Shown: positions 1,236-27,935 of the stretch, piece by piece | Numbering within the stretch: the stretch's first letter is position 1 | Layout of the letters: every line of letters starts with the position of its first letter | Assembly: GCA_019056805.1 (NCBI GenBank) | Contig: DXJG01000001.1 | Span: 90,001-122,000, forward strand | DNA: 32,000 nucleotides | Reading direction: 5' to 3' | Source of the DNA: Candidatus Baldrarchaeota archaeon | GTDB lineage: Archaea > Asgardarchaeota > Baldrarchaeia > Baldrarchaeales > DXJG01 | Made by a program: the position numbers and the translations under genes | Notes under the pieces: model-generated | Seen by the model: only the letters and a program-made list of their open reading frames with translations | What the model was told of the DNA's origin: nothing | Databases searched by the model: none

Positions 1236-4200
1236 ATGACTGAAAAAGTGAAGAAGTTCGGAAGTTTATTAAAATCGTTAATTACTATACCCAGAGCAAA
1301 AGTTAGAAAGGATAAAGTAATTTTATATCTCTCACTTACATTAATATTCTTCTTTGCTCTACTAATAAGAATTTATCCGTACTTTTCTTATGGTGTTGTA
1401 CTTAAGGCATTTGACCCGTGGTTTCAACTAAAATCAACTTTGTATATAATAAGTCACGGCTTTTCCGCTTGGCTTAACTGGGTCGAAAAACCTCCAGATA
1501 TATCTACATGGTACCCCTATGGCCGAAATATGCCTAAAACATCTTTCCCAGGAATACCATGGACAGCAGCAACTCTGTATTTCATACTTAAATTCTTAGG
1601 AGTAGAAATAGATCCAGTAACACTTTGCTATTTCTTCCCAGCTATCATGGGAGCGCTGGCATCAATTGCGATGTACTTTTTCGCCAAAGAATTAACAGAT
1701 AGTATAAAAACGGGTCTACTTTCAGCATTCTTTCTTGCTTTTATCCCGGGATACGTTCAACGTACAACTGCAGGATTCTTTGACAATGAAGCGATAGGCA
1801 TTTTACTCATAATATTATCACTTTACTTCTTTGTAAGATCCCTAAAAAGAGAATCCGTATTATCAGGAATTATGGCAGGGCTATTTCTAGGATATCTCTC
1901 AGCCAGCTGGGGTGCTTATTTATACGCGTTTGATTTACTAGCAGTCTACGCATTACTTCTTCTTATTTCACGTAGATATTCTAGATCGCTACTTCTATCC
2001 TACACCACAACAGTCGGTCTCGGTCTCTTTATAGCGACAAGAATACCCAGACTCGGACCGAGTATACTAACTAAGACAGATCTACTTCCATCTTTAATCA
2101 TGTTAGTAGTATTACCTGTTTACGAAGGGGCCCCCCTAGTATATAATTCCCTAATAGTCAAGCGAATAAGGGAAATTAAAATATCAAAAAAAGCACTTGG
2201 ATATATATCGCTGTTAACAATCGTACTTATCTCTTCATTATTTACCTATTTATGGTATATCGGTTTATCTCCCTTGATCATTTTACAAAAATACTTCAAA
2301 CCCATTAGCGGAAAATTTTTAACGGTACTAAACCCTCTTTATAGAGAAAAGACGCGTATAATAGCTTCAGTAGCGGAGCATGCAGCGACATCGTGGGCAG
2401 AATTCTATTTTAACTTAAATGTTCTTTTGTTTGTTTATCCTCTTGGAATATATTTTTCATTTAAACGATTAAAAAATGAAGATATTTTCTTAATAATTTT
2501 AGGACTAACAGCTACGTATTTCGCTGGATCCATGATAAGATTAATATTAATACTTTCACCGGTAGTTTGTCTCCTTTCGGCATACGCGATTGATCAAATA
2601 CTATCTCCATTTGTAAATGTGTTAAAAGAAGTACGTGAGGGCATGCCTTTAGCAAGGCGTAAAAGAGCTAGAATTTCTGGTATAGTTGGTTCAGAGTATA
2701 CGGTTATAACTTTAGTTTTCGTAGCATCACTACTTATCATTGCAACATGGTATGGAGCATACATTTCATCAAAATATATGGCAGCTGCAGAAATGTTGCC
2801 TAATGGGGAGCCAGATTGGCAAGAAGCACTGATGTGGATGAAATATAATCTACCAGAAAACACTGTAATAGCTTCCTGGTGGGACTATGGTTACTGGATA
2901 AATACGGTAGCAAATAAAACCACCATAGTTGATAATGCGACACTTAATAGTACCCAAATAGCATGGATAGGTGCAGCATTCGCACTAAATGAGACAGAAG
3001 CAGTAAAAATATATAAACGATATAATGTAACGCACGTATTAGTGTTCTTTGGATACTGTATTCAAGGACTAGGTGGAGATGAATTTAAATGGCCATGGAT
3101 GGTTAGAATCGCCGAGGATCATTTTCCAGAACTAGTGAATGAATCTCTCTATGGAGATATCACTAGCCCAACAGATACGTTCTTTAACTCAACTATTTAC
3201 AAATTACTATTTTACAGAGAACCAGATCCCGAACCGAACAAATATCGTGACAGCCTGATAAACTTTATGATAAGATATAGATATTTAGCATATTACAGGG
3301 ATCCTTATGGCCAAATTCCAGACGTCGATCCTCAACACTGGGCACTATTCGAAAAAATATTCAAACCAACATATCTTTCAAGCAACCGTTTTGTCAAAAT
3401 ATTTGAGGTAAATTACAGCATTTTAGAAGCCCGTATGGAAATATCAGATGCCAATCTGTATAATAATGGTCTTTGTATCGTAACAATAAATAATACTGGA
3501 ATTCATGACCTCCGACTTTCAAAAATCTATGTAAACGGTGAAAACTATGACTTTGAAATAGTAAAAGGAAGCGAAACAATAAACCCGAATGAAACAGTAG
3601 AAATTGTTGTAGACACCGAAAGAGAGTGGTCGATAGGTGACAACGCGACAATTAAAGTTGTAGCAAAGGTCATAGAGTATCCTGGCTACAAAATATCAAC
3701 ATCTACGAACGTTACAGCTACGGAAGCCCCCAAGATACTTCTTGTCGTAGACGAAGAGGCAACTATAATTTATGACAATGGTATAGGTTTTGTTAAAGTT
3801 AAAAATGTTGGAGAGTTCCCCGTTACAGTCGATTCAATTACGGTAAATGCAACAGAAACCTCATTTACGGCGATTAACGGAAGCATGACAATTTTACCAC
3901 AAAATGAAACATTGTTCGTTATCGATTTAGGTTTTAATGAAACTACTAAATTAACAAGTTCGATAACGACTGTTAATGTAACTTATCATCCTACTGGAGC
4001 CCCCAAGAAATTAATAACGGCGATTATTAACGCCACTGTTACAGCAACTCCACCTCTTCTTCTCAATATTGAAAGTGCAACAGCTTATACCAACGGAATC
4101 GTAACCATAACAGTTAGCAATCCAACAAACCTATCTATAAAAATCAGCGGTGTCGCTATTAATGGTACTAATTACAGCTTCGAAATAATTAACGGCAGTG

Positions 4201-4643
4201 CCACATTAAACAAAGATGAAATTACAGTGCTTAAAGTTAGTACTGGAGTATACTTTAATGTTTCACAGATTGTTAACGTTACCGTTTACTACCACTTTAG
4301 CTATGTATCAAGATGGGCAAACGAAACATCAATGACAAATATAGCTATAGTACCATATGCTAACATAACAGCAGAAGCATATCAAGATGGAACTGTAATT
4401 ATAACGATTACAAATCTCGGAATAGAGCAATTAGAGATATTAGCAATCAAAATTAATGGAACACTCTGTAACTTTACAATAATTAATGGCTCAACTACTT
4501 TAAATCCAGGAGACTCAACAACATTACAACTTAATTACACGGCAATATCTGGCATACAACTCGCTATAGGCGACAAGTTGGTTATAAAAGTTGATTTCGT
4601 AGAGGGATACACCCTAGAAGAAATCGTCGTAGTTAAATCATAA
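1236..4643 (+). CDS. aglB: Oligosaccharyltransferase catalytic subunit AglB/STT3 with a repeat-containing C-terminal extension
   Basis: Multi-TM N-terminal region with FDPW, YPYGR, GFFDNEA and SVAEH; soluble domain with SWWDYG, DNATLNST and DEFK (DxxK) motifs. Confidence 0.96.
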   Translation: MTEKVKKFGSLLKSLITIPRAKVRKDKVILYLSLTLIFFFALLIRIYPYFSYGVVLKAFDPWFQLKSTLYIISHGFSAWLNWVEKPPDISTWYPYGRNMPKTSFPGIPWTAATLYFILKFLGVEIDPVTLCYFFPAIMGALASIAMYFFAKELTDSIKTGLLSAFFLAFIPGYVQRTTAGFFDNEAIGILLIILSLYFFVRSLKRESVLSGIMAGLFLGYLSASWGAYLYAFDLLAVYALLLLISRRYSRSLLLSYTTTVGLGLFIATRIPRLGPSILTKTDLLPSLIMLVVLPVYEGAPLVYNSLIVKRIREIKISKKALGYISLLTIVLISSLFTYLWYIGLSPLIILQKYFKPISGKFLTVLNPLYREKTRIIASVAEHAATSWAEFYFNLNVLLFVYPLGIYFSFKRLKNEDIFLIILGLTATYFAGSMIRLILILSPVVCLLSAYAIDQILSPFVNVLKEVREGMPLARRKRARISGIVGSEYTVITLVFVASLLIIATWYGAYISSKYMAAAEMLPNGEPDWQEALMWMKYNLPENTVIASWWDYGYWINTVANKTTIVDNATLNSTQIAWIGAAFALNETEAVKIYKRYNVTHVLVFFGYCIQGLGGDEFKWPWMVRIAEDHFPELVNESLYGDITSPTDTFFNSTIYKLLFYREPDPEPNKYRDSLINFMIRYRYLAYYRDPYGQIPDVDPQHWALFEKIFKPTYLSSNRFVKIFEVNYSILEARMEISDANLYNNGLCIVTINNTGIHDLRLSKIYVNGENYDFEIVKGSETINPNETVEIVVDTEREWSIGDNATIKVVAKVIEYPGYKISTSTNVTATEAPKILLVVDEEATIIYDNGIGFVKVKNVGEFPVTVDSITVNATETSFTAINGSMTILPQNETLFVIDLGFNETTKLTSSITTVNVTYHPTGAPKKLITAIINATVTATPPLLLNIESATAYTNGIVTITVSNPTNLSIKISGVAINGTNYSFEIINGSATLNKDEITVLKVSTGVYFNVSQIVNVTVYYHFSYVSRWANETSMTNIAIVPYANITAEAYQDGTVIITITNLGIEQLEILAIKINGTLCNFTIINGSTTLNPGDSTTLQLNYTAISGIQLAIGDKLVIKVDFVEGYTLEEIVVVKS
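3435..4640 (+). repeat. Four tandem ~100-aa beta-rich protein repeats in the AglB C-terminus
   Basis: Units start at about 3435, 3729, 4050 and 4353. Shared consensus is roughly Y-x-NG-x3-(I/V)-x-(I/V)-x-N-x-G...(I/V)-x2-I-x-(V/I)NG...F-x-I(I)NGS-x-T(L/I)NP-x-E. Confidence 0.85.
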
Positions 4644-4839: not shown

Positions 4840-5643
4840 TCACCTAGACTCTCTTTTAAACTCTCCTTCTCCCCCTTCTTCTTTGATAAGACTTAATGCA
4901 GTGTCTACTACTTTCTTTAGCACTTCCTCAGCAGTGCCCCAATCTTTAGCCTCTACTTCAACTTTCCACCTCGGAGTCCCAGCCAAGTAAATGTCTATTT
5001 TTACGCCATCTTTTTCGCTTTTACCGGCTTTAATAGCTTCTTTCAATGTTTTTTTAATTATTTCTACTCCATTCGGTTTTGTGCATTTTAGTGTAAGTAT
5101 ACCAGAAATTTTTACTTTCGGAATTTCAACATACATTTTAGCAAGTTCAGTTAGTACTTTTGCCCATTTTTCATCCAATCCTGCCTTTAAGAGTGCAGTT
5201 TCTCCTTCTTCTAATGCAGCTTCAAATCCTGCATATATTTCACCAAATGCATCTTCCATTTTCCAACCTGCTTCTTCATAAGCTTCATCAAGAGTTTTTC
5301 CAAGCTTTTCAGCGGCTAATAGAAGTAGGTTTTCAGCTTTCTGTGCTCTTTTCCATTCAGAAATCTTCTGTCTTCTCCACTGATCTGTTACTCGCCTTAA
5401 AGACAAATCTATGTGACCTTTAACCTTATCCACTCTTAAAACTTTAGCAACCACCTTTTGTTTCTCTCTCACGTAATCTCTGATATTTCGAACCCATGTA
5501 CTTGAAACTTCGCTAATGTGAATGAATCCCTCTTTCTCGTTATATTCATCAAGCCTAACATAAGCTCCATAGGGTTCAACACGAACCACTGTTCCAATTA
5601 CTATATCACCAACTTCAGGCCATTCTTGTCTCCTTTTTACCAT
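4840..5643 (-). CDS. eif2a: Translation initiation factor aIF2 alpha subunit
   Basis: WPEVGDIVIGTV S1 domain, EGFIHISEV, KGHIDLSLRRV; GGAGG SD upstream. Confidence 0.97.
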   Translation of the reverse strand: MVKRRQEWPEVGDIVIGTVVRVEPYGAYVRLDEYNEKEGFIHISEVSSTWVRNIRDYVREKQKVVAKVLRVDKVKGHIDLSLRRVTDQWRRQKISEWKRAQKAENLLLLAAEKLGKTLDEAYEEAGWKMEDAFGEIYAGFEAALEEGETALLKAGLDEKWAKVLTELAKMYVEIPKVKISGILTLKCTKPNGVEIIKKTLKEAIKAGKSEKDGVKIDIYLAGTPRWKVEVEAKDWGTAEEVLKKVVDTALSLIKEEGGEGEFKRESR

Positions 5644-6571: not shown

Positions 6572-7147
6572 TCATACTTTTATTATTTTTGCCTTATTTC
6601 TTTTTATCAATGTTTCCACATTTTTTGACGGTAATACGACAATGTCTCCTTTCTTAAAAGGACCGTAAACTTTCATATCCGTTCCAACAATAGCTGGCAG
6701 ATTTTCAAGAATTCTCACAGCAATCTTTTCTTTCTTAAACTCGTCTATTTTTATACTTCTTAACTCCTTTTCTATTTCACCAATAATCTTTCCTTCCAGG
6801 ATATTAGAAATAAACATAAAATAGTTCTTTAGAGAATCAATTAATGGCTTAAAGTACTTTTTTTCCACTGGATTCAATTGAACCTCGACAGTTTCGTCCT
6901 TTCTCAATATGCTTTTTAAAATTTTTTCTAAACGTAAAATACATAAGTCCTTAATCATAAACTGAGCATTTTTCAGCTCTGATTCTATAATTTTGGATTC
7001 TATACGACCTAAATTTTCATTGTTAAGCCCTTTTCTAAGCGTGTTAATATATCTACTTAGTTCTTCGTAAAAACGTGGAGGCAAGCCCTGTAAACTCTTG
7101 TTTTCAATCTCTTTGAGCCATATCGCATACAGTTTTTCATAATCCAT
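6572..7147 (-). CDS. gins51: GINS complex subunit, Gins51 (Gins15) type
   Basis: Helical A domain (LQGLPPRFYEELSRYI) followed by C-terminal B domain (VRILENLPAIVGTDMKVYGPFKKGDIVVLP); canonical position after priS. Start moved to MDYEKLY at 7147. Confidence 0.88.
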   Translation of the reverse strand: MDYEKLYAIWLKEIENKSLQGLPPRFYEELSRYINTLRKGLNNENLGRIESKIIESELKNAQFMIKDLCILRLEKILKSILRKDETVEVQLNPVEKKYFKPLIDSLKNYFMFISNILEGKIIGEIEKELRSIKIDEFKKEKIAVRILENLPAIVGTDMKVYGPFKKGDIVVLPSKNVETLIKRNKAKIIKV

Positions 7148-7148
7148 T

Positions 7149-8399
7149 TTACGACAACTCCGCAATATTCTTAGCAAGCAGAAAAACAACAGCAGAAAGA
7201 GGGAGTTCCACCTTCTCATCCTCTTGGTATGGTCCAAATACTTCTTCTCCAATCCTAAATTCGGGGCAATAATCTCTAAAAATTACTTCTTTCTCACCCT
7301 TAAAAACTACGGCATCTTTAAATGGATCAAATTTCTCGATCTCCGCAACTGAAATTGGAATTACCTTAAACCCCGTTGAGCCATGCAAACTATATTCGAG
7401 TCTAATAAGTCTGTGTACATCTATGCTTACAGGTTCATCTACCTGGGCGGAAGATAGTTTTATCGCTACTGAGGCAATTTTTTTCCAAATAGAGATCCCT
7501 ATGCCCTGTAAAATATCCCATCTAGGAGGGATAGTACTCAAAGCCTTTATAACCTTCTCCTTATTGTTTAGCAATATTTCTATTTTATTTCTTTGTATTC
7601 CAGCATCTCTAAGAATACTTTCTATATTATGACTTGAAAAAAGCTTAATTATAGATTTTACCAGACGGCCACCCCAACCCTCAGTGTTAAGATCAGGACC
7701 AACAATAGATTTACGCCCTCCAACAGAAATTTCAACCAAACCTAGGTTTTCCACCCTCACCCCAGTTCCTGAAACATAGTCAACAATTTCTCTTCTTCCT
7801 TCACTACTTAATTCTCTTACTGTTTCACTGTACACGTGTATATGGTAACCACGATGTCCTGAGTAAACAATTTTTACCTCCTCTTTCGATATACCGAAAT
7901 CACTAAAAAGGAAATCTAGAAGTTTGAATAGCTCATCCTTTGCAGAATTGAGGCATTGATCACATATCCATGTGATTTCATCAATAACAGTTGATTTACA
8001 ATTTGGACACTGATCAGGTCTTTTTCCTAAGCCTTTTGCACCACAGTTGGTACATACCCATTTATCATGGGTTTCTTTACATTTAGTAACTAGATGATCG
8101 GCGTCAATGTCGAATATTAAATCAGCACCTAACCAACCTTTTCCTTCCATATTTTGCGCTTCCGGGTCTAAATAGTAAGCTGCAGATCTATATGCATTTT
8201 TTGGGACATTTTTTCTAAGAAACATTAAAAATTCTGACCGATTATAAAAAGTCTTATGTCTAATCATACCTTCCTTAGTCCAAAGCATAAAGCCGAATTC
8301 TCTTTTACTAAACTGAGGTGGTGTGGGGATATCGTTTTCCTTGTAATAAGCACCAAAGAGGCTTTTCAAAAGCAAAATGGATTTCGCTCTACTTTTCAT
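7149..8399 (-). CDS. priS: DNA primase catalytic (small) subunit
   Basis: ADLIFDIDAD, YSGHRGYHIH and VDEPVSIDVHRLIRL motifs. Start moved to MKSRAK at 8399. Confidence 0.96.
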   Translation of the reverse strand: MKSRAKSILLLKSLFGAYYKENDIPTPPQFSKREFGFMLWTKEGMIRHKTFYNRSEFLMFLRKNVPKNAYRSAAYYLDPEAQNMEGKGWLGADLIFDIDADHLVTKCKETHDKWVCTNCGAKGLGKRPDQCPNCKSTVIDEITWICDQCLNSAKDELFKLLDFLFSDFGISKEEVKIVYSGHRGYHIHVYSETVRELSSEGRREIVDYVSGTGVRVENLGLVEISVGGRKSIVGPDLNTEGWGGRLVKSIIKLFSSHNIESILRDAGIQRNKIEILLNNKEKVIKALSTIPPRWDILQGIGISIWKKIASVAIKLSSAQVDEPVSIDVHRLIRLEYSLHGSTGFKVIPISVAEIEKFDPFKDAVVFKGEKEVIFRDYCPEFRIGEEVFGPYQEDEKVELPLSAVVFLLAKNIAELS

Positions 8400-9450
8400 T
8401 CTTAGTACGCCTCTCTTTGTGGAGAATATACGACATTCTACCGTAAAACACAAGGGGATTCTTTATTGTCCCTTCAGAACACCATTTATGTGTTGGTCTA
8501 CAAATACCGTATGTTTTTAATGTATCACAGTTATGGGCGGTGTATCCTTTACTTTTTGCATGTTTAACATAATATTTTGTTCTCTCTTCGTTAAAATCCG
8601 GCATTTTTCTAAATAAATTCACAACGTCCTCCTCTGCTTTCCCAATATCTAACATAAAAAACATAAGAAATAATCTCTCTACATGACTTAAATTCTCCCC
8701 TCTTTCAGTTCTTTCGAGAATATACTGAATACATGGGGGATAAACACCCCCCGTGATTTCAGCTTTTATCGGGATTTCCCTTATAACCTCTTTTTTATAT
8801 TTTTTAATTAGTTCTTCTATATCTTCCAAGATTCTCATCAATTTATCTGGTAACTCTATAAATCTCTTCGGAACTCTTTTCTCTAAAATCTTTTCCTTAA
8901 AAGCTTCAGCCAATAATCTAGCTAATTCTCGCTTAGTTAATCTTACATAACCATTAGAGACGGGATGATTACACATCTTCCAAGTTATATCGTGAAAATG
9001 AACAGCAGTGCTCAAATAATCCTTAAAATGTAATTTCCACTCGTAGAATTTTACACCCACCCTCTTTATCTCGTATATTAAATTCCAACCATGTTCACTA
9101 ACATTACCCGGCATCCTAGCAATTTCTAATATTTTCTCGTTTTCTTCCTTTTGCAAAAATTGACCAACTCTTTTTGAAAACGCAACAGCAAATCTTCGTC
9201 TTAACCAATCATCGCCAATAGCATCTATAAAAAGCCTAACAACTGGAAACGCTAAAATTTCGGTTTCAAAGTCATTAGAGACATACGTATAGACTCCTTT
9301 AACAATAATGTCTCTTAATATTTGTCGCGCTCTATTAACAATTGCAGGGTACTCATCGGCTAACGTTGCAATATCGATATTAAACTGTCTTACATATTCT
9401 CGTGCAGGTTCTATGCTTGGATATTTAGCTAAATCTTCTTTTGTCAGCAT
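8389..9450 (-). CDS. priL: DNA primase regulatory (large) subunit
   Basis: DLAKYP N-terminus; YPPCI, NLSHVER, and HNCDTLKTYGIC Fe-S domain motifs. Confidence 0.93.
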   Translation of the reverse strand: MLTKEDLAKYPSIEPAREYVRQFNIDIATLADEYPAIVNRARQILRDIIVKGVYTYVSNDFETEILAFPVVRLFIDAIGDDWLRRRFAVAFSKRVGQFLQKEENEKILEIARMPGNVSEHGWNLIYEIKRVGVKFYEWKLHFKDYLSTAVHFHDITWKMCNHPVSNGYVRLTKRELARLLAEAFKEKILEKRVPKRFIELPDKLMRILEDIEELIKKYKKEVIREIPIKAEITGGVYPPCIQYILERTERGENLSHVERLFLMFFMLDIGKAEEDVVNLFRKMPDFNEERTKYYVKHAKSKGYTAHNCDTLKTYGICRPTHKWCSEGTIKNPLVFYGRMSYILHKERRTKNEK

Positions 9451-9467
9451 ATTTCATCAAATGAAAT
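9451..9467. promoter_or_regulatory. Inverted repeat ATTTCAT-N3-ATGAAAT abutting the priL start codon
   Basis: Perfect 7-bp arms directly upstream of ATG 9450. A TTTTATAAA TATA-like run lies about 30 bp upstream on the minus strand. Confidence 0.35.
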
Positions 9468-9500
9468 AAATAATTTTAATTTTTATAAAATCTTCTCAGA

Positions 9501-10253
9501 TTATTCTCCTTCTATTCTTGGAGCTAAGAAGTAGCTTACCCTCCCTCCACCTGGAAGGTTAAAATCGATACGAAGAGGCATATCTGTCGAAAGTTGGAGC
9601 TTTACAGTATCAGCAGCTTTTGCAACTTTAATCATGTCAGCAAGATAGTTCAAAGTATAGGTTGCAGACACTTCTTCCGCAGTTTGAACGTCAAGAAGTG
9701 CTTCGGAATCTTTTCCCATCTCTACAACAACTTCTCCGAGATCACCAACAGCTCTCAAAACCACCTTTTCTGGTTGAACTACAATTTTTACGTGGTCACT
9801 AGTGATTGCAGCATCCTTTACAGCTTCCTGTAGAGCATCAGCTGTGATGATAGCACTAGCTTTAAACTCAACAGCAGGTTCGGGTAGTTCTTCAGCAGTA
9901 ATGTCCAGTAAATGAATACTAAAAGTTCTAACAGTTTTTCCCCGTAACTTTAATTTAAGTCTCTTCTCAGTTTCATCATAAAATATTTCCAAAGTATCCC
10001 CAGTCCTCGCTCTTCTCATAACCTTTTTCATCTCGTCAAGATTTACACCAAGCAAAGTTTCCTTATCGCACTCATACTCATCGAAAGCATCGCTTGGCAG
10101 GACAAAATCCACCATAGCGACGTGTGACGGATCCATAGCTCTCATGCTTAACCCTTCTGGCTTTGCGACAAAGTTAGCTTCATCTACAAGGGTCGATAAT
10201 GCATCAACTATGTATGTCCATGTTTTTGCATTCGAAAGTACAGCCCTAAACAT
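9501..10253 (-). CDS. pcn: Proliferating cell nuclear antigen (sliding clamp)
   Basis: RAMDPSHVAMVD, ATYTLNYLADM, and SYFLAPRIE C-terminus. Confidence 0.97.
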   Translation of the reverse strand: MFRAVLSNAKTWTYIVDALSTLVDEANFVAKPEGLSMRAMDPSHVAMVDFVLPSDAFDEYECDKETLLGVNLDEMKKVMRRARTGDTLEIFYDETEKRLKLKLRGKTVRTFSIHLLDITAEELPEPAVEFKASAIITADALQEAVKDAAITSDHVKIVVQPEKVVLRAVGDLGEVVVEMGKDSEALLDVQTAEEVSATYTLNYLADMIKVAKAADTVKLQLSTDMPLRIDFNLPGGGRVSYFLAPRIEGE

Positions 10254-18812: not shown

Positions 18813-19580
18813 ATGACTTTTACTATAGCTATAACTGGAAAAGGTGGTACTGGGAAAACAACGGTTGCTGCATTGTTAATAAACTTTTTCCGTAAAAATT
18901 TTGAAGGTCCTATACTAGCCATTGATGCTGATCCAAATAACAATCTACATGAGGCTTTGGGATTAAATGTAAGTAAAACGGTTGGAGATATTCGTGAAGA
19001 AATTTTACAAAGTGAAAAATACTCCTCTCCCAGTATGTCAAAGGAAGGTTACCTCGAATACCTAATTTATGGTGAAGTTGTGGTTGAAGCGAATGGTTTT
19101 GACTTTATAGCTATGGGTAGACCTGAGGGCCCAGGATGCTACTGTTATGTAAATCATCTTTTAAGAAAAATTATAGACAATTTAGCGAGGAACTATCGTT
19201 TCATTATAATGGATACAGAGGCTGGTCTTGAACATATAAGTCGAAGAACAACCAGAGATATCGATGTTATGCTTATAACAACCGATACAAGTATAAGAAG
19301 TTTAAGAACAGCTAAGCGGATAAGAGATTTAGCTATAAGTTTAGAAACAAAAACAAAGAATTTCTATGTAGTGGTAAATAGAGCGTCTCAAGACATGTTA
19401 CCCCTAATACTTGAAGAATTAAATAAAATGAATCTAAAATTGATAGGGGTAATTCCAGAAGATCCACTTGTTCTAGAATACGATTTTAAAGGAAAACCTT
19501 TAATCGGCCTTCCCCCACACTCACCAGCAATCCAGGCTGTGGCAGATATAGTAGAAAAACTAAAACCGCTCATCCAATAA
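18813..19580 (+). CDS. cooC: CooC-family nickel-insertion ATPase, AcsF/CooC2-like
   Basis: GKGGTGKT, DADPN, MGRPEGPGCYC, DTEAGLEHISR. Confidence 0.9.
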   Translation: MTFTIAITGKGGTGKTTVAALLINFFRKNFEGPILAIDADPNNNLHEALGLNVSKTVGDIREEILQSEKYSSPSMSKEGYLEYLIYGEVVVEANGFDFIAMGRPEGPGCYCYVNHLLRKIIDNLARNYRFIIMDTEAGLEHISRRTTRDIDVMLITTDTSIRSLRTAKRIRDLAISLETKTKNFYVVVNRASQDMLPLILEELNKMNLKLIGVIPEDPLVLEYDFKGKPLIGLPPHSPAIQAVADIVEKLKPLIQ

Positions 19581-19611: not shown

Positions 19612-21042
19612 TTATTGTTTTTCTCCAAAAACTTCCTGTTTCCAGATTTTTTCTAGGAACTGTTTAATATCTGCGGAGTCTCGGGGACCTACGAAGACTC
19701 TCCAGTCTTTTAAAAGATCTTCTAGTTCTCCACTAAGTCGTGCTGCATATCCAGGAATTATGACAGTTTTATGTTGTACTTTTTCCATCGCGCCCGAAGA
19801 AACCATGGTTTCATAAATATTCTCTGCTGTTAACTTCTTACCTGCTACTGCTGACTGTACACTGGTCCCCTCGGTATCAACAACCACCAGCCATGCATCT
19901 ATCTTGTTTCTTTCAACATCATCCTTAACAATGTAATATGTTAAGGCAAAGTTCGCGGTAACCAGCAGTGGTGACATCTCATTAGGTTTACCTATTTCAT
20001 ACAATCCAGGCTTTACTGATGGAGGAACTCTGGGATCTGTATATACACAATCTCTCCATACTATTACTGGTAAAATCGGCCAAACATCAATGGAATGAAG
20101 TATAAGGATATCGGCATACCTTGACATTAGTGAAGATGCGACTATAGATTCCATAAGCCTTTTTTCATCATCATTTCCATCAAAGAGCGACCATACAGCT
20201 GCTGGAACTCCAAGCAAAGGATAGCCGACATCAGAGTCTTCTCCCTCTATTGCAGCATACCTTAAAACACTGAACATACTGATGGTGTCTAAAATAGTTC
20301 CTCCATCAACAAAAGTCCCTGGATCAAGTACAAAGTCGTCAAGGTTATAGTATTTTTTAATCGATACCGTTAAGGATTTTAGGAGTGAAAGATCTCCAGG
20401 GGCTGATACCACTAGTGGACATTTGTATTTCGAGGAAAGTTCTGCCATTTCTTTCCAGTTTTGTTTATTAGCAGCATAAATAAGAGGTTTTTTATCACCA
20501 GCTATTGTTAAAGCTTCCTCAAGAACAGTAGGATTGTAAGAGCATAAAACCAGAGGAAGTTGAGTGTGCTTTAATACAGTGGAGACGGCGGTTGAAAACT
20601 TTTTCGAATCATCGGATACACATCTTACAGCGATCCCATCAAGTTTAAGTTCCCTTCCAATTCTGATGAAACTAAAGTCATTTACAAATTTTACTCTCTT
20701 AATTAACTCTTCTTCTTCCATTTCATCATGAACATCAATCATTAATGCCGTGGGATGTCGCCAAGTGAGCTCATGCCTGTACATTACATCTTTTCCGCCA
20801 ATAGTTATAGCATTGGGTGGAATTCCTATTGTAACTTCTTTGACAGGAGATCTTAAAACTTCTAGAAGCGCCTTTAATTTTTTACCGTACTTTGGTTCAG
20901 ATAGGGGAGTACACTTTTCAACGCTTACTTGTCTTTCAATAAGTTTTGCAGCAAAAGCCATACAACTACTTTCACCGCATTCGCCACAATTTGTTTGAGG
21001 GAGGTATTTGTATACATCAAGAGGTCTCAAAATTTTTGGCAT
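19612..21042 (-). CDS. cdhE: ACDS complex gamma subunit (corrinoid Fe-S protein, large subunit)
   Basis: LPQTNCGECGESSCMAFA...KCTPL Fe-S motif; YTDPRVP; TANFALTY; IIPGYAA; VGPRDS. Confidence 0.96.
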   Translation of the reverse strand: MPKILRPLDVYKYLPQTNCGECGESSCMAFAAKLIERQVSVEKCTPLSEPKYGKKLKALLEVLRSPVKEVTIGIPPNAITIGGKDVMYRHELTWRHPTALMIDVHDEMEEEELIKRVKFVNDFSFIRIGRELKLDGIAVRCVSDDSKKFSTAVSTVLKHTQLPLVLCSYNPTVLEEALTIAGDKKPLIYAANKQNWKEMAELSSKYKCPLVVSAPGDLSLLKSLTVSIKKYYNLDDFVLDPGTFVDGGTILDTISMFSVLRYAAIEGEDSDVGYPLLGVPAAVWSLFDGNDDEKRLMESIVASSLMSRYADILILHSIDVWPILPVIVWRDCVYTDPRVPPSVKPGLYEIGKPNEMSPLLVTANFALTYYIVKDDVERNKIDAWLVVVDTEGTSVQSAVAGKKLTAENIYETMVSSGAMEKVQHKTVIIPGYAARLSGELEDLLKDWRVFVGPRDSADIKQFLEKIWKQEVFGEKQ

Positions 21043-21053
21043 GCTTAATCCTC

Positions 21054-22367
21054 CTAATACTTGGCTTCAACCCATTTTTCATAGGGAATTTCGCTTAACG
21101 GTTTTCTAACCTTTTGCAACGCTTCAGCAAATGTCTTAGCAATTTTCATTGCAAGTGGATGCATCATCATGAAGAGGTCAGCTCCAGCCAACATACAAAC
21201 GATAGCAGTAGTAGCTTCCCACAATGGGCCTCTAAGTTCTCTTGGTCCCCACTCTTCGACTTTCATCCATGCTTCTCTAGCAGCCCAAGCATTAGTAGCA
21301 GCACAACTCATAGGTACTTGAAGAATTTCTTCCCCCATTAAGGCTGCAAGTCTGATACGTTCCATGACGCTGAAGGAGTATTCTATACCGTAACCTAAGG
21401 CTCCAGTTGTAGGATCGAGAATCAGTTGATTTTTGGGTAATCCAGCTTCAAGAATTTTTCTTGAAAGTTCTTTTGCTTGGTTTATATCCATGAAAGCTAA
21501 TGCAATAGCATTTTGTCCATGCTTCACTAGAGGTTCAACAGCTTTTGGAATATCCATATCCAATGTAATAGAAGCAAATACCAGCTTTTCCCCTTCCGTA
21601 GCTTTTGCAATTTCACGAAAGATGTCAATATCCTTCTCAGGATTCCCAGAACCACCAACTATAATCGGTTCATCAATAGCTTGTAGTACATCTTCCACGG
21701 TTCTTCTTGCTTCACTAGGAGGTGTGTCTTTGATACCGGGGTCTGTACTTACAAGATGAACAGAAACTAAGTCAGCTTTATATGTTTCTATGCATTTCTT
21801 AGCCCATGCAACTGGATCTTCTAGTACGTCAGCATAAGAACGCTTAACCGGACCAGCTAATGTTGGCCGCATATCAAATACGTCTAATGCAAATAAGGGT
21901 CGATTAATCGATGTTTCCTGAAATAGGAACATAGGAGGAGTGGAATAACCTCCAAGTTTATATGTAACGCCTCTAGAACCTCCTTCGCTCTTTGTAGCTC
22001 CAAGTTGAACTTCAGCAATCTTGCTTGTGTAAGGTAATTGTGGATACTTAAAAGGTATCGACAAAAGTTCAACAACTTTTGGTGGCGCTGGAGCAGCCGG
22101 AGTTACAGGTGGCACTCCTAAAACTCGCAAACCTTGTGGAGAAGCTTCAACAAGAAACTCTATTTTTCCTGTCGCTCCTGGCATAACTGGCTCCAGAGAT
22201 AATTTAAATAATTCTGGTCTTCCTGGAGCAGCTGCTGGTACAATTTCAATCGCAAATTCCTCCGCATCTATCGTTACATCCTCTAACTCTACGTTATCAG
22301 TTTCAGAAAGTAGTTTCAAAAGGTCAATTACTATTTTTTCATTTTCTTCCTTTTTTTCTTCCTTCAT
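21054..22367 (-). CDS. cdhD: ACDS complex delta subunit (corrinoid Fe-S protein, small subunit)
   Basis: EVQLGATKSEGGSR, IIVGGSGNPEKD, DPTTGALGYGIEY, AWAAREAW, GADLFMMMHP; GGAGG SD 7 nt before the ATG. Confidence 0.96.
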   Translation of the reverse strand: MKEEKKEENEKIVIDLLKLLSETDNVELEDVTIDAEEFAIEIVPAAAPGRPELFKLSLEPVMPGATGKIEFLVEASPQGLRVLGVPPVTPAAPAPPKVVELLSIPFKYPQLPYTSKIAEVQLGATKSEGGSRGVTYKLGGYSTPPMFLFQETSINRPLFALDVFDMRPTLAGPVKRSYADVLEDPVAWAKKCIETYKADLVSVHLVSTDPGIKDTPPSEARRTVEDVLQAIDEPIIVGGSGNPEKDIDIFREIAKATEGEKLVFASITLDMDIPKAVEPLVKHGQNAIALAFMDINQAKELSRKILEAGLPKNQLILDPTTGALGYGIEYSFSVMERIRLAALMGEEILQVPMSCAATNAWAAREAWMKVEEWGPRELRGPLWEATTAIVCMLAGADLFMMMHPLAMKIAKTFAEALQKVRKPLSEIPYEKWVEAKY

Positions 22368-22506
22368 GGGAGGCCTCCAGAGGCTTTATTATAACCTTTT
22401 CTGCTTGAATCTCCACTCCTTCTAATTCTAAAGTTACATTTTGCTGCAAAATTTTTGACAGAAATGAAACAATGTCAATTTCCTTTGATTTATTGGATGA
22501 AGTCAC
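22339..22506 (-). CDS. Unannotated 55-aa microprotein homologous to the CdhD N-terminal module
   Basis: GTG 22506 to TGA 22339 gives MTSSNKSKEIDIVSFLSKILQQNVTLELEGVEIQAEKVIIKPLEASHEGRKKGRK. Gap-free 15/40 identity to CdhD residues 1-40; fills the 145-bp cdhC-cdhD gap; purine-rich GAGGGGAAGTGA upstream. Confidence 0.75.
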   Translation of the reverse strand: MTSSNKSKEIDIVSFLSKILQQNVTLELEGVEIQAEKVIIKPLEASHEGRKKGRK

Positions 22507-22512
22507 TGTGAA

Positions 22513-23946
22513 TCACTTCCCCTCGGTTTTCTTAATTATAACCTTGTTTATGTGAATTTTTGCGCCCTTTAGAATTATCTTTATCCCACCAGCTGGAACA
22601 GCTTGGCCAGCAACAGGAAGAGCTGTGGGCAATGATACTTGTGGAATACCTATAGTTGTGGGTTGTTCAGGTACAGCGGCAGCTTCTTCAGCAGCTGCTT
22701 CTTCAGCAGCTGCAGCTTCCATTTCACGGATTTTCTCAGCTACTGGATGGTTTTTCTCAAGCAGGAACTTTTTCAACTCTTCTATATTAGTTGCGTCTTT
22801 TTCTGTCGCTATTTTGTCTACCAATTCTTCCGGTATAGCATCCTTTACTCGCATTTTTAGTTCTTCAGGCATCCATACAACTCTATTCCAACCGCCATCA
22901 GCATAGAAGAACTTTCTAGATCGCATATACTCGATTCCTATTCCCAAGAATCCTTCTGTTTGTATTCCACCACCCGTTTGAGCTGCCATAGATGAGAATG
23001 GTAATCCGTTTACAGCCTCTCCTCTGAAACCTCGATGTACAATTCCTATACCATCAACTTCTGGTATATAGAAAGCTATACATTCAAAGCATCCGCACGA
23101 TGTATGAGGATATTCAAACATACTGTAAAGGTAAACTCTTTTTACTGATCCAAGTGATCGTTGTGCAACTACTTCGTTTATACCACTCCATTCACCTTTA
23201 ACAGGGTCTAAACATTCACCTTTTGGAATTGGAAAGTTTGGTCCCTTTGGATCTATATTAGCTGAAGCTCTTGCGTCAAGCCAGGTTAGAGAACCGCAAA
23301 GCGATATTCTTTCCGGCGTGATTACACAAACATGCGTTGGTGCAAACGATTGACAAAGTACACAACCGTAGAACATATCAACTTCTTCGTCTTTTAGTCC
23401 TCTAACTCGGGCATCTCTGGCTTCATATACCTGCATTGCTTCTTCAAATTTCTTGGCTACCTCATCTGGATCTGTTATAAAGGTTACCTGCATTTTTTCT
23501 ATGTAGGGCATTTCAGCTTTGAATAGTTTAATTAGTGCCATACCCCACCATTTTAGAGAATCTAGACCCTTCTTTACAGATTTTTTAGCGATTCTTATCC
23601 AGATATCGTATCTCTGGTTTAAGTGCATTATACCTTCGATGTAGTTTGTGTACATGTGGATACGTCGTTCAACGACTCCTTCGAGATCTGTTTCAAGTTT
23701 TGGTCCTGCAATTTCTATAAGTATGCCTAGTGGGTAGCTTCCCCCTTCTTTTAAATCTTTTAAATCTGGTCCAATGATTTGTACTTTTTCATCCTCTACT
23801 TCATCCATAGACCTTACTCGTACAAGTTCAAATTTGTGTTCTACTTTTGGTCCGCCAAATTCAAGGTACATATCATCTCTTCTTATTCTTTGCCCTTCAA
23901 AAGCTGGACTTATTTCAATAGGGAAACCAGCAAATGCTGATGACAT
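22513..23946 (-). CDS. cdhC: ACDS complex beta subunit (acetyl-CoA synthase)
   Basis: FEGQRIRR, FYGCVLCQSFAPTHVC, RISLCG and HTSCGCFE A-cluster motifs; C-terminal Ala/Glu linker. Confidence 0.97.
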   Translation of the reverse strand: MSSAFAGFPIEISPAFEGQRIRRDDMYLEFGGPKVEHKFELVRVRSMDEVEDEKVQIIGPDLKDLKEGGSYPLGILIEIAGPKLETDLEGVVERRIHMYTNYIEGIMHLNQRYDIWIRIAKKSVKKGLDSLKWWGMALIKLFKAEMPYIEKMQVTFITDPDEVAKKFEEAMQVYEARDARVRGLKDEEVDMFYGCVLCQSFAPTHVCVITPERISLCGSLTWLDARASANIDPKGPNFPIPKGECLDPVKGEWSGINEVVAQRSLGSVKRVYLYSMFEYPHTSCGCFECIAFYIPEVDGIGIVHRGFRGEAVNGLPFSSMAAQTGGGIQTEGFLGIGIEYMRSRKFFYADGGWNRVVWMPEELKMRVKDAIPEELVDKIATEKDATNIEELKKFLLEKNHPVAEKIREMEAAAAEEAAAEEAAAVPEQPTTIGIPQVSLPTALPVAGQAVPAGGIKIILKGAKIHINKVIIKKTEGK

Positions 23947-23957
23947 TTTTTACCCTC

Positions 23958-24503
23958 CTAATCTTTTTTCTTTTCTTCTTTTAGAGTTTTCATTAAAATG
24001 TTAAGATTTTCAATCCAATCTTTCTCAGACAAATTCTGGAATGACCATGTAGCGTTAGGGTGATAATATCTGTCAAGAGATAGAGTTCTTATTTGTGGCG
24101 CAAAGTTCTTTAAACATGAAAGCAATTGTGATTGCAATTGATACGTGATTCCAACATATACCACTATGTCATGTGGTTTTGAACCATCAAGACTCCATTC
24201 AGGGTCTCTTAACCTATCGGTGATTTCTATAGCACCCATCGATAATGCGGGTTCTACGCCACGTTCTAAAAAGGCACTTAATGTGCTAGAAGTAGCGACA
24301 ATGGGAATTTTAGCGACCTCAGCAATTTCAATAACATAGTCTAAGAGGAGTTTCTCTCCAACTTTAACCTTTAAAGCTTCTGCTCCAACTATTATTAATG
24401 GATTTTTAGCCTTTTTTAACAGTTTTCCCGCTACTTCCCCAGTTAGTTTTAAAGCCGTTTTTGGTCCTGGAACATTACCCAACTGCCAAGGAGTAATGGA
24501 CAT
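23958..24503 (-). CDS. cdhB: ACDS complex epsilon subunit
   Basis: PWQLGNVPGPK, KKAKNPLIIVG, DRLRDPEW, and LDRYYHPNATWSF; operon position. Confidence 0.93.
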   Translation of the reverse strand: MSITPWQLGNVPGPKTALKLTGEVAGKLLKKAKNPLIIVGAEALKVKVGEKLLLDYVIEIAEVAKIPIVATSSTLSAFLERGVEPALSMGAIEITDRLRDPEWSLDGSKPHDIVVYVGITYQLQSQLLSCLKNFAPQIRTLSLDRYYHPNATWSFQNLSEKDWIENLNILMKTLKEEKKKD

Positions 24504-24516
24504 AGTTGTTCACCCC

Positions 24517-26877
24517 CTACTTTTTAACCCTTATTAAACGTTCTAGTAGGGTTGGGTCAACCACGGGTTTTTCCCAAGGTTCCCAGCCAACTTCTTTCAG
24601 ATATTCCATAATTTCTCCTTTGAAAGTAATAGGAATATCAGCCTCTGTTCGAATGAACATGTGCAGATCATCTGGTAGTCGCCTGTAATATTTCTTATAT
24701 AACTCAACATAGTGAGTCAATTTTATCATTCTACCCTTAGTTGTATCATTTGGTCTTAGACAAAGTTTAGCAGTCATAACAATAGCCTCTTCGCGAGTCT
24801 CGGCTACATAAACTAAATGTTCAGGTGCGGGACCAACCCAAACTCTATCACCAGTTCTTGCATCGTATACTGTGAAACTTTCTCTATCCTCCCTCCGACC
24901 GAGATACAATCGTCTATATTTAGCACCCTGAGGACCAACAATTACAGGTACGCCAAGTCTATTAAAGCCAGTAGCTATCGATGCAGCTTTTTGTGACATG
25001 GCACCCCAAGCAACTCCACAAGCACCAACCCTATTCAAAACATAATCCGCAATTTCTTCATAATTGGCCCTTAATGGACGCCTTGCGAAGATATTAGCTA
25101 TTTTGATGGCCGCACCAGCTATGTGAGCATTAGCTACACATGATCCAACATTTACAAGCCCCCCAGCATCGAAAGCCCCAGAATATTCCTCATACAATGT
25201 TTTTCCTTCTTCCGTTCTATACATGGCTATGCTCATAGCTGAACAGCCTGAAACCGTAACAATGAATCTTCTTCTTAAGAATTCTTCAGCCATTATTGCA
25301 ACGTCACGTCCACCTTCGGGGTAATTAGCACATCCAACATAAGCTACTACACCTGGAATTTCACCAAAAACTATTGGTGAACCAACTTCTCTAATTTCAG
25401 TATCAAGAATAGGGCCTCTACCTACCCTTATCTTGTATCGCTCCGTCTTTATTTTTAATTCAGCAGCACTTACGATTAAGCTATGAATTGGAATATCCCT
25501 TGGACATTCACTTTCACAACGAGCACAACCCAAACAATAATCATAAAGTTCTGCTAATTTATCGAAATTACCTTGTCTTGCAGCAAATACCGCTTCATCT
25601 GTTGGTAGATCGATCGGGCAATTTCTTCTACACCTACCACATTTCGTACATTTCTCTGCTACTTTCTTTAAGTCAGCTTTGTCAGGTAAGGACTTAAACT
25701 TCTTTCTAATAGGTGCAATTCTCAATGCGGTTAATACTGCTACAGCTCCAGCCTTTTCTAAATCAAGTATCAAAACACCAGGGTATTTTCCAGAAACCAA
25801 TGCGTCAACTATTTCCTCTACGGGTTTATTAGTCATATCGGGTAATCCATGACATGCTTTATCGGATGTAGCGATGACAGGTGTTTTTACACGCTGAGCT
25901 TCTGAAAGAACCATTATATGAATACATTGTTCATCAAGAATTAGCACATCAGCAGCTCCAGACCTAATGAAGCGAATTTGATGTGAAATTGGACCAACTA
26001 TCTTAGCTTGTTCATCATACCGCGTTAAGTCATGAGCGGTACAACATAATCCTAGAACTTCTATTGTCTCTCCAGGTCTTCCAAGACCATTCTTTTTCAT
26101 AAAATCTATTATTTCTACACCACTGGAGACGTTATGACCTATACAAAGAATCACGGGTTTTGTCGTGTCAGCAAGCCCCATACCAACTTCCGTCAATGGG
26201 GCGTCAGGTTTTCCTTTTGGAAAATTATATGTAATTATTTGAGCTACATCTGCAACTTCCATTGCTAAGTGATCTAACATACCTAGATGAAGACTCTTTG
26301 ACTCAAAATCTAAATAACTACCTTCTTGCCCTGTATGTGCTGCAGCCAGTGTCTGGACAATCTGTTCTTCTACATATTTTAATATGTAAGAGAGATCTCC
26401 AAGTGTTTTTGGTTTAATTCCTGTGATCAGTCTGCTTATTGGCATTTCAACATAGATGTCCGACCCTAGGTCTATTGGCCAGTTTTCACCATATTTTTCA
26501 ATTAGATGATCTACTAGGTGTCTTGCATGACTCGTGTGTGTTGAAGCCCCTATGGCACATGCTATTAATACTATTCGTCCTTGTTGAGCGCCTATGTCAA
26601 GTCCGCATGCTCCCCTCTTACCAGCGGTTAAATCACATTTTCCATAAGTGCAAAGGCAACATAAATCGCAAAAGGGCATATAAAAAGGCCTATAACGTTT
26701 TAATAATTTCATATCCCATTCTCTAAGAGTGGTTATTTTTGGCATAGGTGTAGGTCCCATAGGTTCCCATTCTTCTTCCATAGCAAGACGGCCAATAGCA
26801 ATTTCAATATCTTCAAGTGAAATTCCACTACCTTTAAGAGATTTTACCGAGAATTTTATTGGTCCCTTTTCAACCAC
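24517..26877 (-). CDS. cdhA: ACDS complex alpha subunit (archaeal Ni-CO dehydrogenase)
   Basis: CDLCCLCTYGKC, CIGHN, LCCTAHD, DEQC, two internal CxxCxxCxxxCP ferredoxin motifs, VGCAN, VGSCVANAH. Confidence 0.97.
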   Translation of the reverse strand: MVEKGPIKFSVKSLKGSGISLEDIEIAIGRLAMEEEWEPMGPTPMPKITTLREWDMKLLKRYRPFYMPFCDLCCLCTYGKCDLTAGKRGACGLDIGAQQGRIVLIACAIGASTHTSHARHLVDHLIEKYGENWPIDLGSDIYVEMPISRLITGIKPKTLGDLSYILKYVEEQIVQTLAAAHTGQEGSYLDFESKSLHLGMLDHLAMEVADVAQIITYNFPKGKPDAPLTEVGMGLADTTKPVILCIGHNVSSGVEIIDFMKKNGLGRPGETIEVLGLCCTAHDLTRYDEQAKIVGPISHQIRFIRSGAADVLILDEQCIHIMVLSEAQRVKTPVIATSDKACHGLPDMTNKPVEEIVDALVSGKYPGVLILDLEKAGAVAVLTALRIAPIRKKFKSLPDKADLKKVAEKCTKCGRCRRNCPIDLPTDEAVFAARQGNFDKLAELYDYCLGCARCESECPRDIPIHSLIVSAAELKIKTERYKIRVGRGPILDTEIREVGSPIVFGEIPGVVAYVGCANYPEGGRDVAIMAEEFLRRRFIVTVSGCSAMSIAMYRTEEGKTLYEEYSGAFDAGGLVNVGSCVANAHIAGAAIKIANIFARRPLRANYEEIADYVLNRVGACGVAWGAMSQKAASIATGFNRLGVPVIVGPQGAKYRRLYLGRREDRESFTVYDARTGDRVWVGPAPEHLVYVAETREEAIVMTAKLCLRPNDTTKGRMIKLTHYVELYKKYYRRLPDDLHMFIRTEADIPITFKGEIMEYLKEVGWEPWEKPVVDPTLLERLIRVKK

Positions 26878-27146: not shown

Positions 27147-27935
27147 TTATAATAAAGATTTTTTCAATAATTCTACTGCTTTAATTGCTGGCGAAGATGG
27201 AACATAGTCGATGGGGGCTTTCTTTATCATATCAGCATAAGCAATTTGTTTATCAAAAGGTATGACAGCAAGCAGCGATATCTGATGTTTTTCCAATTCT
27301 TCTTTTACAAAACGTTCTTCTTCACTTGTTGATATCTTATTAGCCACAACAGCAAATTTACGAATCCCAATATCTAATGCTAACTTCTTTATACGGCAAG
27401 CAGTCTCAATGGATTTAAAACTTGGCTCAACAACAGCTAGCATTATGTCCACGTTCCTAGCGGTTCCACGCCCAAGATGTTCTATACCAGCTTCCATATC
27501 AAGGATAACAAACTCATCTCTATCAACAACTAAATATCTAAGTAAATTCCTAAGAAAAGCATGGGCTGGACAAAGACATCCTGTTCCTCCATTTCGAACG
27601 GTTCCCATAACTAAAAGCATAACTCCATCAGGACCTCTAACTCCGAACCGATCAACAATATCATCGACCTTGGGGAACAAATTAAATGCTCCACCAAGTG
27701 GAAGGCCAGGAATTTTCGTTCGTTCCTCTATAAGTTCTCTATTGACTGCAAGAGGAACTATTCTCGATATTTCTTCTTTTCTTAACCCTATCGTATAAGC
27801 AAGATTTGTATTTGGATCGGCATCTACCGCTAATACCTTATAACCATCCCTAGCTAGAATCCTAGCCAAAGTTCCAGCAATGAAAGTCTTACCAACTCCG
27901 CCTTTACCAGTAATAGCTAGTTTCACACCTTTCAC
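27147..27935 (-). CDS. cooC: CooC-family nickel-insertion ATPase, CooC1-like
   Basis: GKGGVGKT, DADPN, GGTGCLCP, DMEAGIEHLGRGT. Confidence 0.92.
   Translation of the reverse strand: MKGVKLAITGKGGVGKTFIAGTLARILARDGYKVLAVDADPNTNLAYTIGLRKEEISRIVPLAVNRELIEERTKIPGLPLGGAFNLFPKVDDIVDRFGVRGPDGVMLLVMGTVRNGGTGCLCPAHAFLRNLLRYLVVDRDEFVILDMEAGIEHLGRGTARNVDIMLAVVEPSFKSIETACRIKKLALDIGIRKFAVVANKISTSEEERFVKEELEKHQISLLAVIPFDKQIAYADMIKKAPIDYVPSSPAIKAVELLKKSLL

Follow-up and report, generated by a model that had tools for sequence, protein, structure and literature searches.

In this study we analysed a window of 32,000 nucleotides (nt) from a Candidatus Baldrarchaeota archaeon (assembly GCA_019056805.1, contig DXJG01000001.1, positions 90,001 to 122,000 of the forward strand), a lineage that the NCBI taxonomy places within Promethearchaeati, the Asgard archaea. 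Near its start the window contains a gene for STT3 (AglB), the catalytic subunit of oligosaccharyltransferase (OST). We found that the encoded enzyme is an Asgard eukaryote-type STT3, and that its C-terminus is prolonged by a tail of four tandem, sequon-rich repeats predicted to fold as immunoglobulin (Ig)-like beta-sandwiches. This tail is one copy-number state, in a range from 0 to ~8 domains, of a feature that is widespread among Asgard archaea. With a probability of about 0.6 we infer that it serves as a stalk outside the cell, coated with glycans and variable in length, whose proximal domain is conserved. No prokaryotic protein is more closely related to the catalytic subunit of the eukaryotic OST than the Asgard STT3, which is usually treated as a plain core accompanied by a few accessory genes.

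Four Ig-like domains follow the catalytic core

The STT3/AglB open reading frame (ORF) occupies window positions 1236-4643 on the plus strand and encodes 1135 amino acids (aa) in one uninterrupted frame. The GC content was ~36%. The tail comprises residues 734-1135 (402 aa; nt 3435-4643 including the stop codon) and was divided into four domains, listed with their support from AlphaFold2 (AF2), alignment and a hidden Markov model (HMM) of the repeat.

nt 3435-3728, plus strand, aa 734-831 (98 aa): D1, membrane-proximal Ig-like beta-sandwich; 4 sequons; AF2 confidence (pLDDT, predicted local distance difference test) ~89-95; repeat HMM E 9e-35
nt 3729-4049, plus strand, aa 832-938 (107 aa): D2; 6 sequons; AF2, alignment, repeat HMM
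nt 4050-4352, plus strand, aa 939-1039 (101 aa): D3; 7 sequons; AF2, alignment, repeat HMM
nt 4353-4640, plus strand, aa 1040-1135 (96 aa): D4, distal free end; 5 sequons; AF2, alignment, repeat HMM

A preliminary description of this DNA, made from the sequence alone, had proposed four beta-sandwich-like repeats of ~100 aa (98, 107, 101 and 96 aa) behind the catalytic domain and no terminal transmembrane (TM) helix. Both proposals held. Aligned at the boundaries first suggested (MAFFT), D1-D4 were 24-31% identical to each other in pairs and had the pattern Y-x-N-G ... N-x-G ... I-N-G ... F-x-I-I-N-G-S-x-T-L-x-P in common, and the repeat HMM picked up each of the four separately with E values of 1e-28 to 1e-35. 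Structure prediction of residues 734-1135, the check that the preliminary description had named, gave four separate all-beta domains of Ig-like type with a high mean pLDDT of 91.5 (AF2 with an 8-sequence alignment). A BLAST comparison of the tail with itself produced no off-diagonal matches, because the repeats are too diverged; MAFFT, the HMM and AF2 revealed them.

The hydrophobic segments of the protein were confined to aa 25-513, where the TM helices had 19-residue Kyte-Doolittle means of 1.6-2.5. No hydrophobic segment was detected in residues 734-1135, the highest 19-residue mean being 1.47. The tail comes after both the TM helices and the extracellular core and is itself anchorless, an arrangement which implies that it must form a string with a free end outside the cell. 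Thus, of the extracellular Ig-like stalk suggested earlier, the anchorless Ig-like string was found as such, and its extracellular location follows from the architecture. Fully extended, the tail would measure an estimated 15 nm or so, assuming ~4 nm per Ig domain.

The enzyme is a eukaryote-type STT3

The remainder of the protein consists of the membrane domain and the catalytic core, with the following features.

nt 1236-2795, plus strand, aa 1-520: STT3 membrane domain, multi-pass TM (Pfam STT3 PF02516; hydrophobic segments aa 25-513)
nt 2796-3434, plus strand, aa 521-733: extracellular catalytic core (WWDYG, DK motif, alignment with the STT3B/Stt3 lumenal domains)
nt 2877-2891, plus strand, aa 548-552: WWDYG motif, unchanged in 17 Asgard STT3 homologs
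nt 2913-2954, plus strand, aa 560-573: core sequon triad N560/N567/N571 (NKT...NAT.NST), just past WWDYG (alignment, conservation)
nt 3078-3101, plus strand, aa 615-622: DK-type motif DEFKWPWM (DxxKxxxM/I type); D615, K618, W619, W621 and M622 invariant in the 17 Asgard STT3s

PF02516 spanned aa 29-447 (E 9.3e-54; 183.9 bits against a cut-off of 24.5), and the Pfam STT3/PglB/AglB core family gave sub-threshold matches adjoining WWDYG. In the first external loops D60 and D183-N184-E185 were invariant across the same 17 homologs; by analogy with solved OSTs we take the acids D60, D183 and E185 to bind metal and substrate. A DK-type motif DEGKWPWM has been reported for the AglB of P. syntrophicum (PMC11284389). 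Judged by these motifs and profiles, residues 1-733 form a full eukaryote-like STT3 in which the catalytic motifs are intact.

When residues 20-661 were compared with the sequences in the PDB (phmmer), eukaryotic STT3 chains matched with E values of 1.8e-100 to 2.3e-92, whereas solved euryarchaeal AglB chains matched only around WWDYG (E 2e-8 to 1e-3). The catalytic core alone matched the lumenal domains of human STT3B (E 4.5e-28) and yeast Stt3 (E 1e-26). In a Foldseek search with the full-length AF2 model STT3A, STT3B and Stt3 ranked first (E 2e-30 to 1e-22), A. fulgidus AglB-L second (~1e-14; best 7e-15) and PglB third (1.6e-8). We concluded that this Asgard enzyme is an STT3 of eukaryotic type, closer to eukaryotic STT3 than to the solved archaeal and bacterial OSTs. 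The AglB of the preliminary description is thus not a typical AglB.

The eukaryotic STT3 proteins (yeast Stt3 6C26/6EZN/8AGC; human STT3A 6S7O/8B6L and STT3B 6S7T) are homologous over residues 20-661, with 24-28% identity in the structural alignments, and share WWDYG, the DK-type motif and a cluster of sequons past WWDYG. In the latter the segment NKTTIVDNATLNST aligns with NRTTLVDNNTWNNS of human STT3B (NRT...NNT.NNS there), and N567, T569, N571 and T573 were invariant in the 17 Asgard STT3s. The matching site of yeast Stt3 presumably carries a glycan that contacts Wbp1/Swp1. The solved eukaryotic chains are 696-935 aa long, and the alignments end at about residue 630-660, none reaching residues 734-1135. 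Eukaryotic STT3 partners with separate lumenal subunits, whereas the Asgard enzyme carries 402 aa of Ig-like domains in its own chain.

The long euryarchaeal AglBs (A. fulgidus AglB-L 3WAJ/3WAK/5GMY/7E9S; Pyrococcus 2ZAG/2ZAI) are likewise single-chain archaeal OSTs with extra beta-rich extracellular domains, which are named P1, P2 and IS. These are unlike peripheral domains wrapped round the core, in contrast to the regular tandem array of one domain type seen here. The full-length model aligned with AglB-L over ~930-955 columns (Foldseek, E ~1e-14; 3WAK ~950 columns), alignments in which the pairing of individual domains is not visible. Residues 734-1135 had no sequence match to AglB chains, neither with phmmer nor with the repeat profile against the PDB, and no AglB was among the 50 rows listed in a structural comparison of single tail domains (VIA-align).

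In the source genome (1.92 Mb in 18 contigs; 91% complete, 3.6% contamination) the search with this query detected no STT3 other than ORF 1236-4643. In another genome of the genus, a metagenome-assembled genome (MAG) with 9% contamination, a second short STT3 was present beside the four-domain STT3 (G001:C161:315-2174; 748-aa frame, 41% core identity). It may be a paralog or a contamination.

Ig-like tails of varying copy number are widespread in Asgard STT3s

The four-domain layout was recovered in 7 independent protein clusters at 90% identity (ENA, Logan, NCBI and JGI), with tail identities of 54-78%, as well as in 3 other genomes of the genus; within the genus the copy number was constant at four. 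The gene for aIF2-alpha (window 4840-5643), convergent with STT3, kept this pairing in other Asgard families.

To follow the tail beyond the genus we searched 151 Asgard genomes with the catalytic part and grouped the STT3 frames by family (labels f1-f26). Short frames of ~690-800 aa were found in f4, f5, f6, f14, f15, f16, f17, f19, f21 and f26, several of them lying in the interior of genomes that are closed or nearly so. Extended frames had 843-864 aa in f8, 870-888 in f18, 908-963 in f7, 881-993 in f13, 979-1045 in f12, 1138-1162 in f1, 1235 in f3, 1243-1272 in f20, 1216-1336 in f9 and 1296-1361 in f22. The Ig-tailed proteins have a eukaryote-like core, a sequon-rich tandem tail and the lack of an anchor in common with the enzyme studied here, and differ in copy number.

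A profile built from 32 repeats matched 467 proteins at E ≤ 1e-3 among 1.84 billion representatives. Eighteen of the 150 best matches (P0005 included) were STT3 proteins or fragments thereof, two fragments being without WWDYG; the tails had 370-1183 aa past WWDYG, with 2-7 confident repeats and 9-74 sequons. Metagenomic STT3 relatives reached 1715 aa. A permissive per-domain scan gave ~8-9 envelopes in P0014, P0015, P0018 and P0025, five tail domains in Odinarchaeum-type genomes (G005/G016) and in G040, and one in G010 and G020. The survey that had been proposed for the repeat HMM thus showed a widespread module, with a copy number that is not the same everywhere.

The author of the preliminary description knew of no comparable four-repeat stalk. 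Our literature search likewise found no paper describing an Ig-like C-terminal tail on Asgard STT3, the review literature on AglB evolution being covered in part, and neither "Ig-like" nor "extension" occurs in the paper on the MK-D1 translocon (PMC11417166). The Ig-tailed STT3 is apparently an undescribed variant; with tails of ~1-8 domains elsewhere, and none at all in entire Asgard families, the four-repeat form is not a one-off.

The proximal domain is conserved and the distal domains diverge

Among homologs of the genus the TM domain and core were 78-98% identical, and D1-D4 49-86%. As D1-D4 are only 24-31% identical among themselves, against 49-86% to their orthologs in seven related proteins, the four-fold duplication is, by this comparison of identities, older than the genus. 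A scan of 13 distant representative STT3s gave D1 as the best match of the first tail domain in 9 of them, and the same held for G040 and G020. The later domains had no stable counterpart between families, which leaves the proximal domain as the only recognisably orthologous one. We also considered whether the distal end carries a "tip" domain that is conserved between families; this idea was rejected, since the last domains matched D1-D4 poorly and inconsistently.

D4 departed from its neighbours even among the closest homologs. It was 58-59% identical to that of the two nearest homologs, P0002 and P0003, whose D1-D3 were 77-86% identical, and 65% to that of the more distant P0004. This pattern suggests domain exchange or accelerated evolution at what would be the exposed tip.

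The tail is rich in N-glycosylation sequons

By hand count the preliminary description had arrived at about 22 N-x-S/T sequons in the tail. The number is exactly 22 (16 N-x-T and 6 N-x-S), against an expectation from composition of 7.2 +/- 2.3. This is a threefold excess: none of 100,000 shuffles reached 22, the maximum being 18, and 58% of the tail Asn lie within sequons. Elsewhere in the protein there were 8 sequons in the catalytic core (aa 521-733) and 0 in the membrane domain (aa 1-520). Every genus-level homolog carried 21-25 sequons in its tail, with 9 invariant sites while the other positions turned over.

The F-x-I-I-N-G-S element is a sequon in three of the four repeats, as first noted, namely in D2 (N881), D3 (N986) and D4 (N1084), and reads KGS in D1. 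In the AF2 model I-N-G-S sits at the hairpin turn following a strand, and an Asn-Gly hairpin would be a sufficient structural reason for its conservation.

Across the genome the sequon density had a median of 0.29 per 100 aa and a 99th percentile of 2.6, with a small class of proteins at 4-5. A 402-aa window with at least 22 sequons was found in 6 of 355 long proteins, STT3 among them; the other five are surface proteins with CarboxypepD_reg, Big/Ig-like, transglutaminase, MG2 or beta-helix domains. We concluded that the sequon load of the tail is not special to OST and is this organism's norm for secreted beta-sandwiches. A 1012-aa surface protein with transglutaminase and CarboxypepD_reg domains carries 35 sequons (G000:C9:216517-219555), and adjoins an ORF with a sub-threshold OST48_N match (C9:219818-220312).

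The predicted fold resembles archaeal surface-filament domains

A Foldseek search with the four-domain model listed HYDIN-type ASH domains of the ciliary central apparatus, PrgB, RTX adhesins, titin and SbsB among its matches; these are matches to the whole array, for which TM-scores are meaningless, and single domains were therefore compared by VIA-align. The best among the 50 rows listed were the archaellum stator proteins FlaF/FlaG of S. acidocaldarius (5tug, Z 11.0; 4p94, Z 10.4), followed at Z 8.6-10.3 by archaeal type IV pilins (8fk7, 6w8u, 8fjs), archaellins (9eq7, 5ya6, 5tfy) and the AAP pilin 8q30. D3 had FlaF 4p94 (Z 10.4, root-mean-square deviation 1.9 over 90 residues) and the Pyrobaculum pilin 8fk7 (Z 10.3) as best matches, D4 matched archaellin 9eq7 at Z 10.1, and D2 matched PapD-like chaperones and MSP domains at Z 7.4-8.1. 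PCuAC chaperones, carbohydrate-binding modules (CBMs) and PapD/MSP domains lay within one or two Z units of the best. Going by these models, it is safe to state that the tail domains have a common s-type Ig-like sandwich fold that most resembles archaeal surface-filament domains. The likeness to pilins, archaellins and FlaF concerns the globular fold only. Archaeal type IV pilins and archaellins have a class III signal peptide and an N-terminal hydrophobic helix. The tail domains lack both, and instead of polymerising into a filament they are part of an enzyme.

In sequence, the repeat profile had only two weak matches in the PDB, 8q30 (E 0.0096) and 8fk7 (E 0.067). Pfam and NCBIfam scores of the tail stayed below the cut-offs: HYDIN_VesB_CFA65-like_Ig (PF22544) scored 24.1 bits on D4 (cut-off 25.5), ASH 15.8 (27) and choice_anch_D 27.1 (45). 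A pattern N-x-G ... F ... G-S ... P-G is nevertheless common to the tail repeats and the ASH, HYDIN-VesB-CFA65-like, DUF1573 and CARDB families. A remote kinship to the ASH/HYDIN/CARDB superfamily seems likely, because all five non-STT3 profile matches that were scanned (619-2703 aa) scored strongly for HYDIN (PF22544)/ASH/DUF1573, four of them also for CARDB. The idea that the repeat is a module common to the organism's other surface proteins was dropped, as the repeat HMM, run against all ORFs of at least 80 aa in the genome, matched STT3 alone.

A separate ribophorin I is encoded in the same genome

A homolog of ribophorin I (OST1) of 565 aa was found at G000:C17:13038-14735 (L031), unlinked to the STT3 gene. 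Its Ribophorin_I Pfam domain at aa 26-225 scored above the cut-off in two scans (56.9 and 63.3 bits). The long, helical C-terminal region fits the layout reported for OST1 of MK-D1, in which extracellular N-terminal domains are combined with a cytosolic helical bundle (PMC11417166). An OST3/6-like match in the genome was borderline, and the controls responded as well; OST48_N matches stayed below the cut-off. One weak OST48_N match fell on a 333-aa GIFT/ABC_transp_aux-like protein with 14 sequons (G000:C6:39822-40823).

The tail itself matched none of the Pfam families of OST accessory subunits PF04597, PF03345 and PF05817, and no ribophorin, OST48, Swp1 or Wbp1 chain was among the Foldseek and VIA-align matches listed for it. 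Because the genome has its own ribophorin I gene, the tail, on this genomic evidence, does not stand in for that subunit.

Possible roles of the tail

We propose that the tail forms a glycan-coated stalk on the outer side of the membrane. Its sequons would be N-glycosylated as in the other beta-sandwich surface proteins of the genome, most likely in trans by OST molecules that have already folded. D1 would be a conserved part of the outer architecture of the enzyme, the further domains lineage-specific duplications that set the length, and the distal domain the exposed end that evolves most freely. Such a stalk would probably hold or shield the enzyme in the cell-surface coat and take no part in catalysis.

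Three observations weigh against this proposal. A passive spacer would not obviously need a D1 conserved across families or a fixed number of four copies; it is therefore possible that the tail has a specific partner. The repeat type was found in no other protein of the genome, which is unusual for a generic surface module. Finally, the full-length AF2 model was weak in the TM/core region (pLDDT 73.8; predicted TM-score, pTM, 0.49), too weak to place the tail with respect to the active site.

The similarity to FlaF raises the question whether the tail is an envelope tether, i.e. whether its pilin- or FlaF-like domains bind an S-layer or surface-coat protein and thereby fix the OST, possibly with the translocon, beneath the cell envelope, as FlaF fixes the archaellum. 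The top structural matches, FlaF/FlaG and then archaeal pilins and archaellins, and the weak profile matches to 8q30 and 8fk7 are in line with it, and with a free distal end and an unchanging copy number in the genus the tail could span a defined distance to an outer layer. Z values of 8-11 were, however, also obtained for PCuAC chaperones, CBMs and Ig domains of glycosidases, a sign that the fold is a common one; between families it is the distal domains that are least conserved, with no conserved tip, and families with 0-1 domains manage without. We consider a tether unlikely.

Less probable still is a built-in accessory module that acts in cis like the lumenal ribophorins, OST48 or the alpha and beta subunits of TRAP (translocon-associated protein), holding nascent chains or stabilising the complex. 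It would go well with the eukaryote-like core and with the conservation of D1 across many Asgard families, a TRAP subunit beta-sandwich (8b5l_q) matched at Z 7.7, and families with a short STT3 might use separate subunits instead. Against it stand the organism's own ribophorin I homolog and weak OST3/6-like match, the absence of ribophorin, Swp1 and Wbp1 chains among the matches listed, a copy number ranging from 0 to ~8, and a tail that evolves faster than the core.

The sequon excess could also be read as the mark of an in-cis acceptor, a dedicated sink or feedback sensor of the enzyme's own activity, or of a glycan-binding lectin, as had been suggested in part before. The 9 invariant sites and the NGS turn motif in three of four repeats would fit this reading, and a porphyran-binding CBM (8wae, Z 9.0) was among the structural matches. 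Yet five unrelated surface proteins of the genome are equally or more sequon-dense, and the N-G of the motif lies at a hairpin turn, where its conservation has a structural reason. Self-glycosylation in cis is in addition improbable, as the tail would be translocated before its own core could fold around it. We give this explanation very little credence.

An equally slim chance attaches to the tail being a working part of the OST or translocon, with D1 docking on the STT3 core and the array handling nascent surface proteins or contacting ribophorin I or TRAP. If true, the tail would be a cis-encoded counterpart of the separate lumenal beta-sandwich subunits of eukaryotes, and its presence or absence among Asgard families would reflect the way in which the multi-subunit OST of eukaryotes came together.

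An artefact in which STT3 and a surface protein were fused by mis-assembly or by a lost stop codon, as an 18-contig MAG with 3.6% contamination might suggest and as the preliminary description had kept in mind, is practically ruled out by the same single frame in 7 clusters from four data sources and in 3 congeneric genomes, by the conserved synteny with aIF2-alpha and by homologous tails on distant STT3s.

Taken alone, the four-domain protein is one more data point and introduces no new principle. What matters is that a variable Ig-like array, heavily glycosylatable, would stand on the outer face of STT3 in roughly every second Asgard family of the sample. This bears on models of the Asgard OST and translocon, on constructs for heterologous expression and on reconstructions of the ancestral OST. 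The natural series of 0, 1, 2 and up to 8 domains also offers a testing ground for extracellular appendages of a membrane glycosyltransferase.

Other genes of the window

Beyond aIF2-alpha in the window, a replication cluster with GINS51, the small and large subunits of primase and PCNA was found on the minus strand (window 6572-10253). Further on, also on the minus strand, positions 19612-26877 contain a complete-looking archaeal cluster for carbon monoxide dehydrogenase/acetyl-CoA synthase (CODH/ACS; cdh) with alpha (Prismane/CODH), epsilon and beta subunits and two CdhD-family proteins, flanked by CooC-like ATPases at 18813-19580 and 27147-27935. Judged by its gene content, the cdh cluster indicates a Wood-Ljungdahl pathway.

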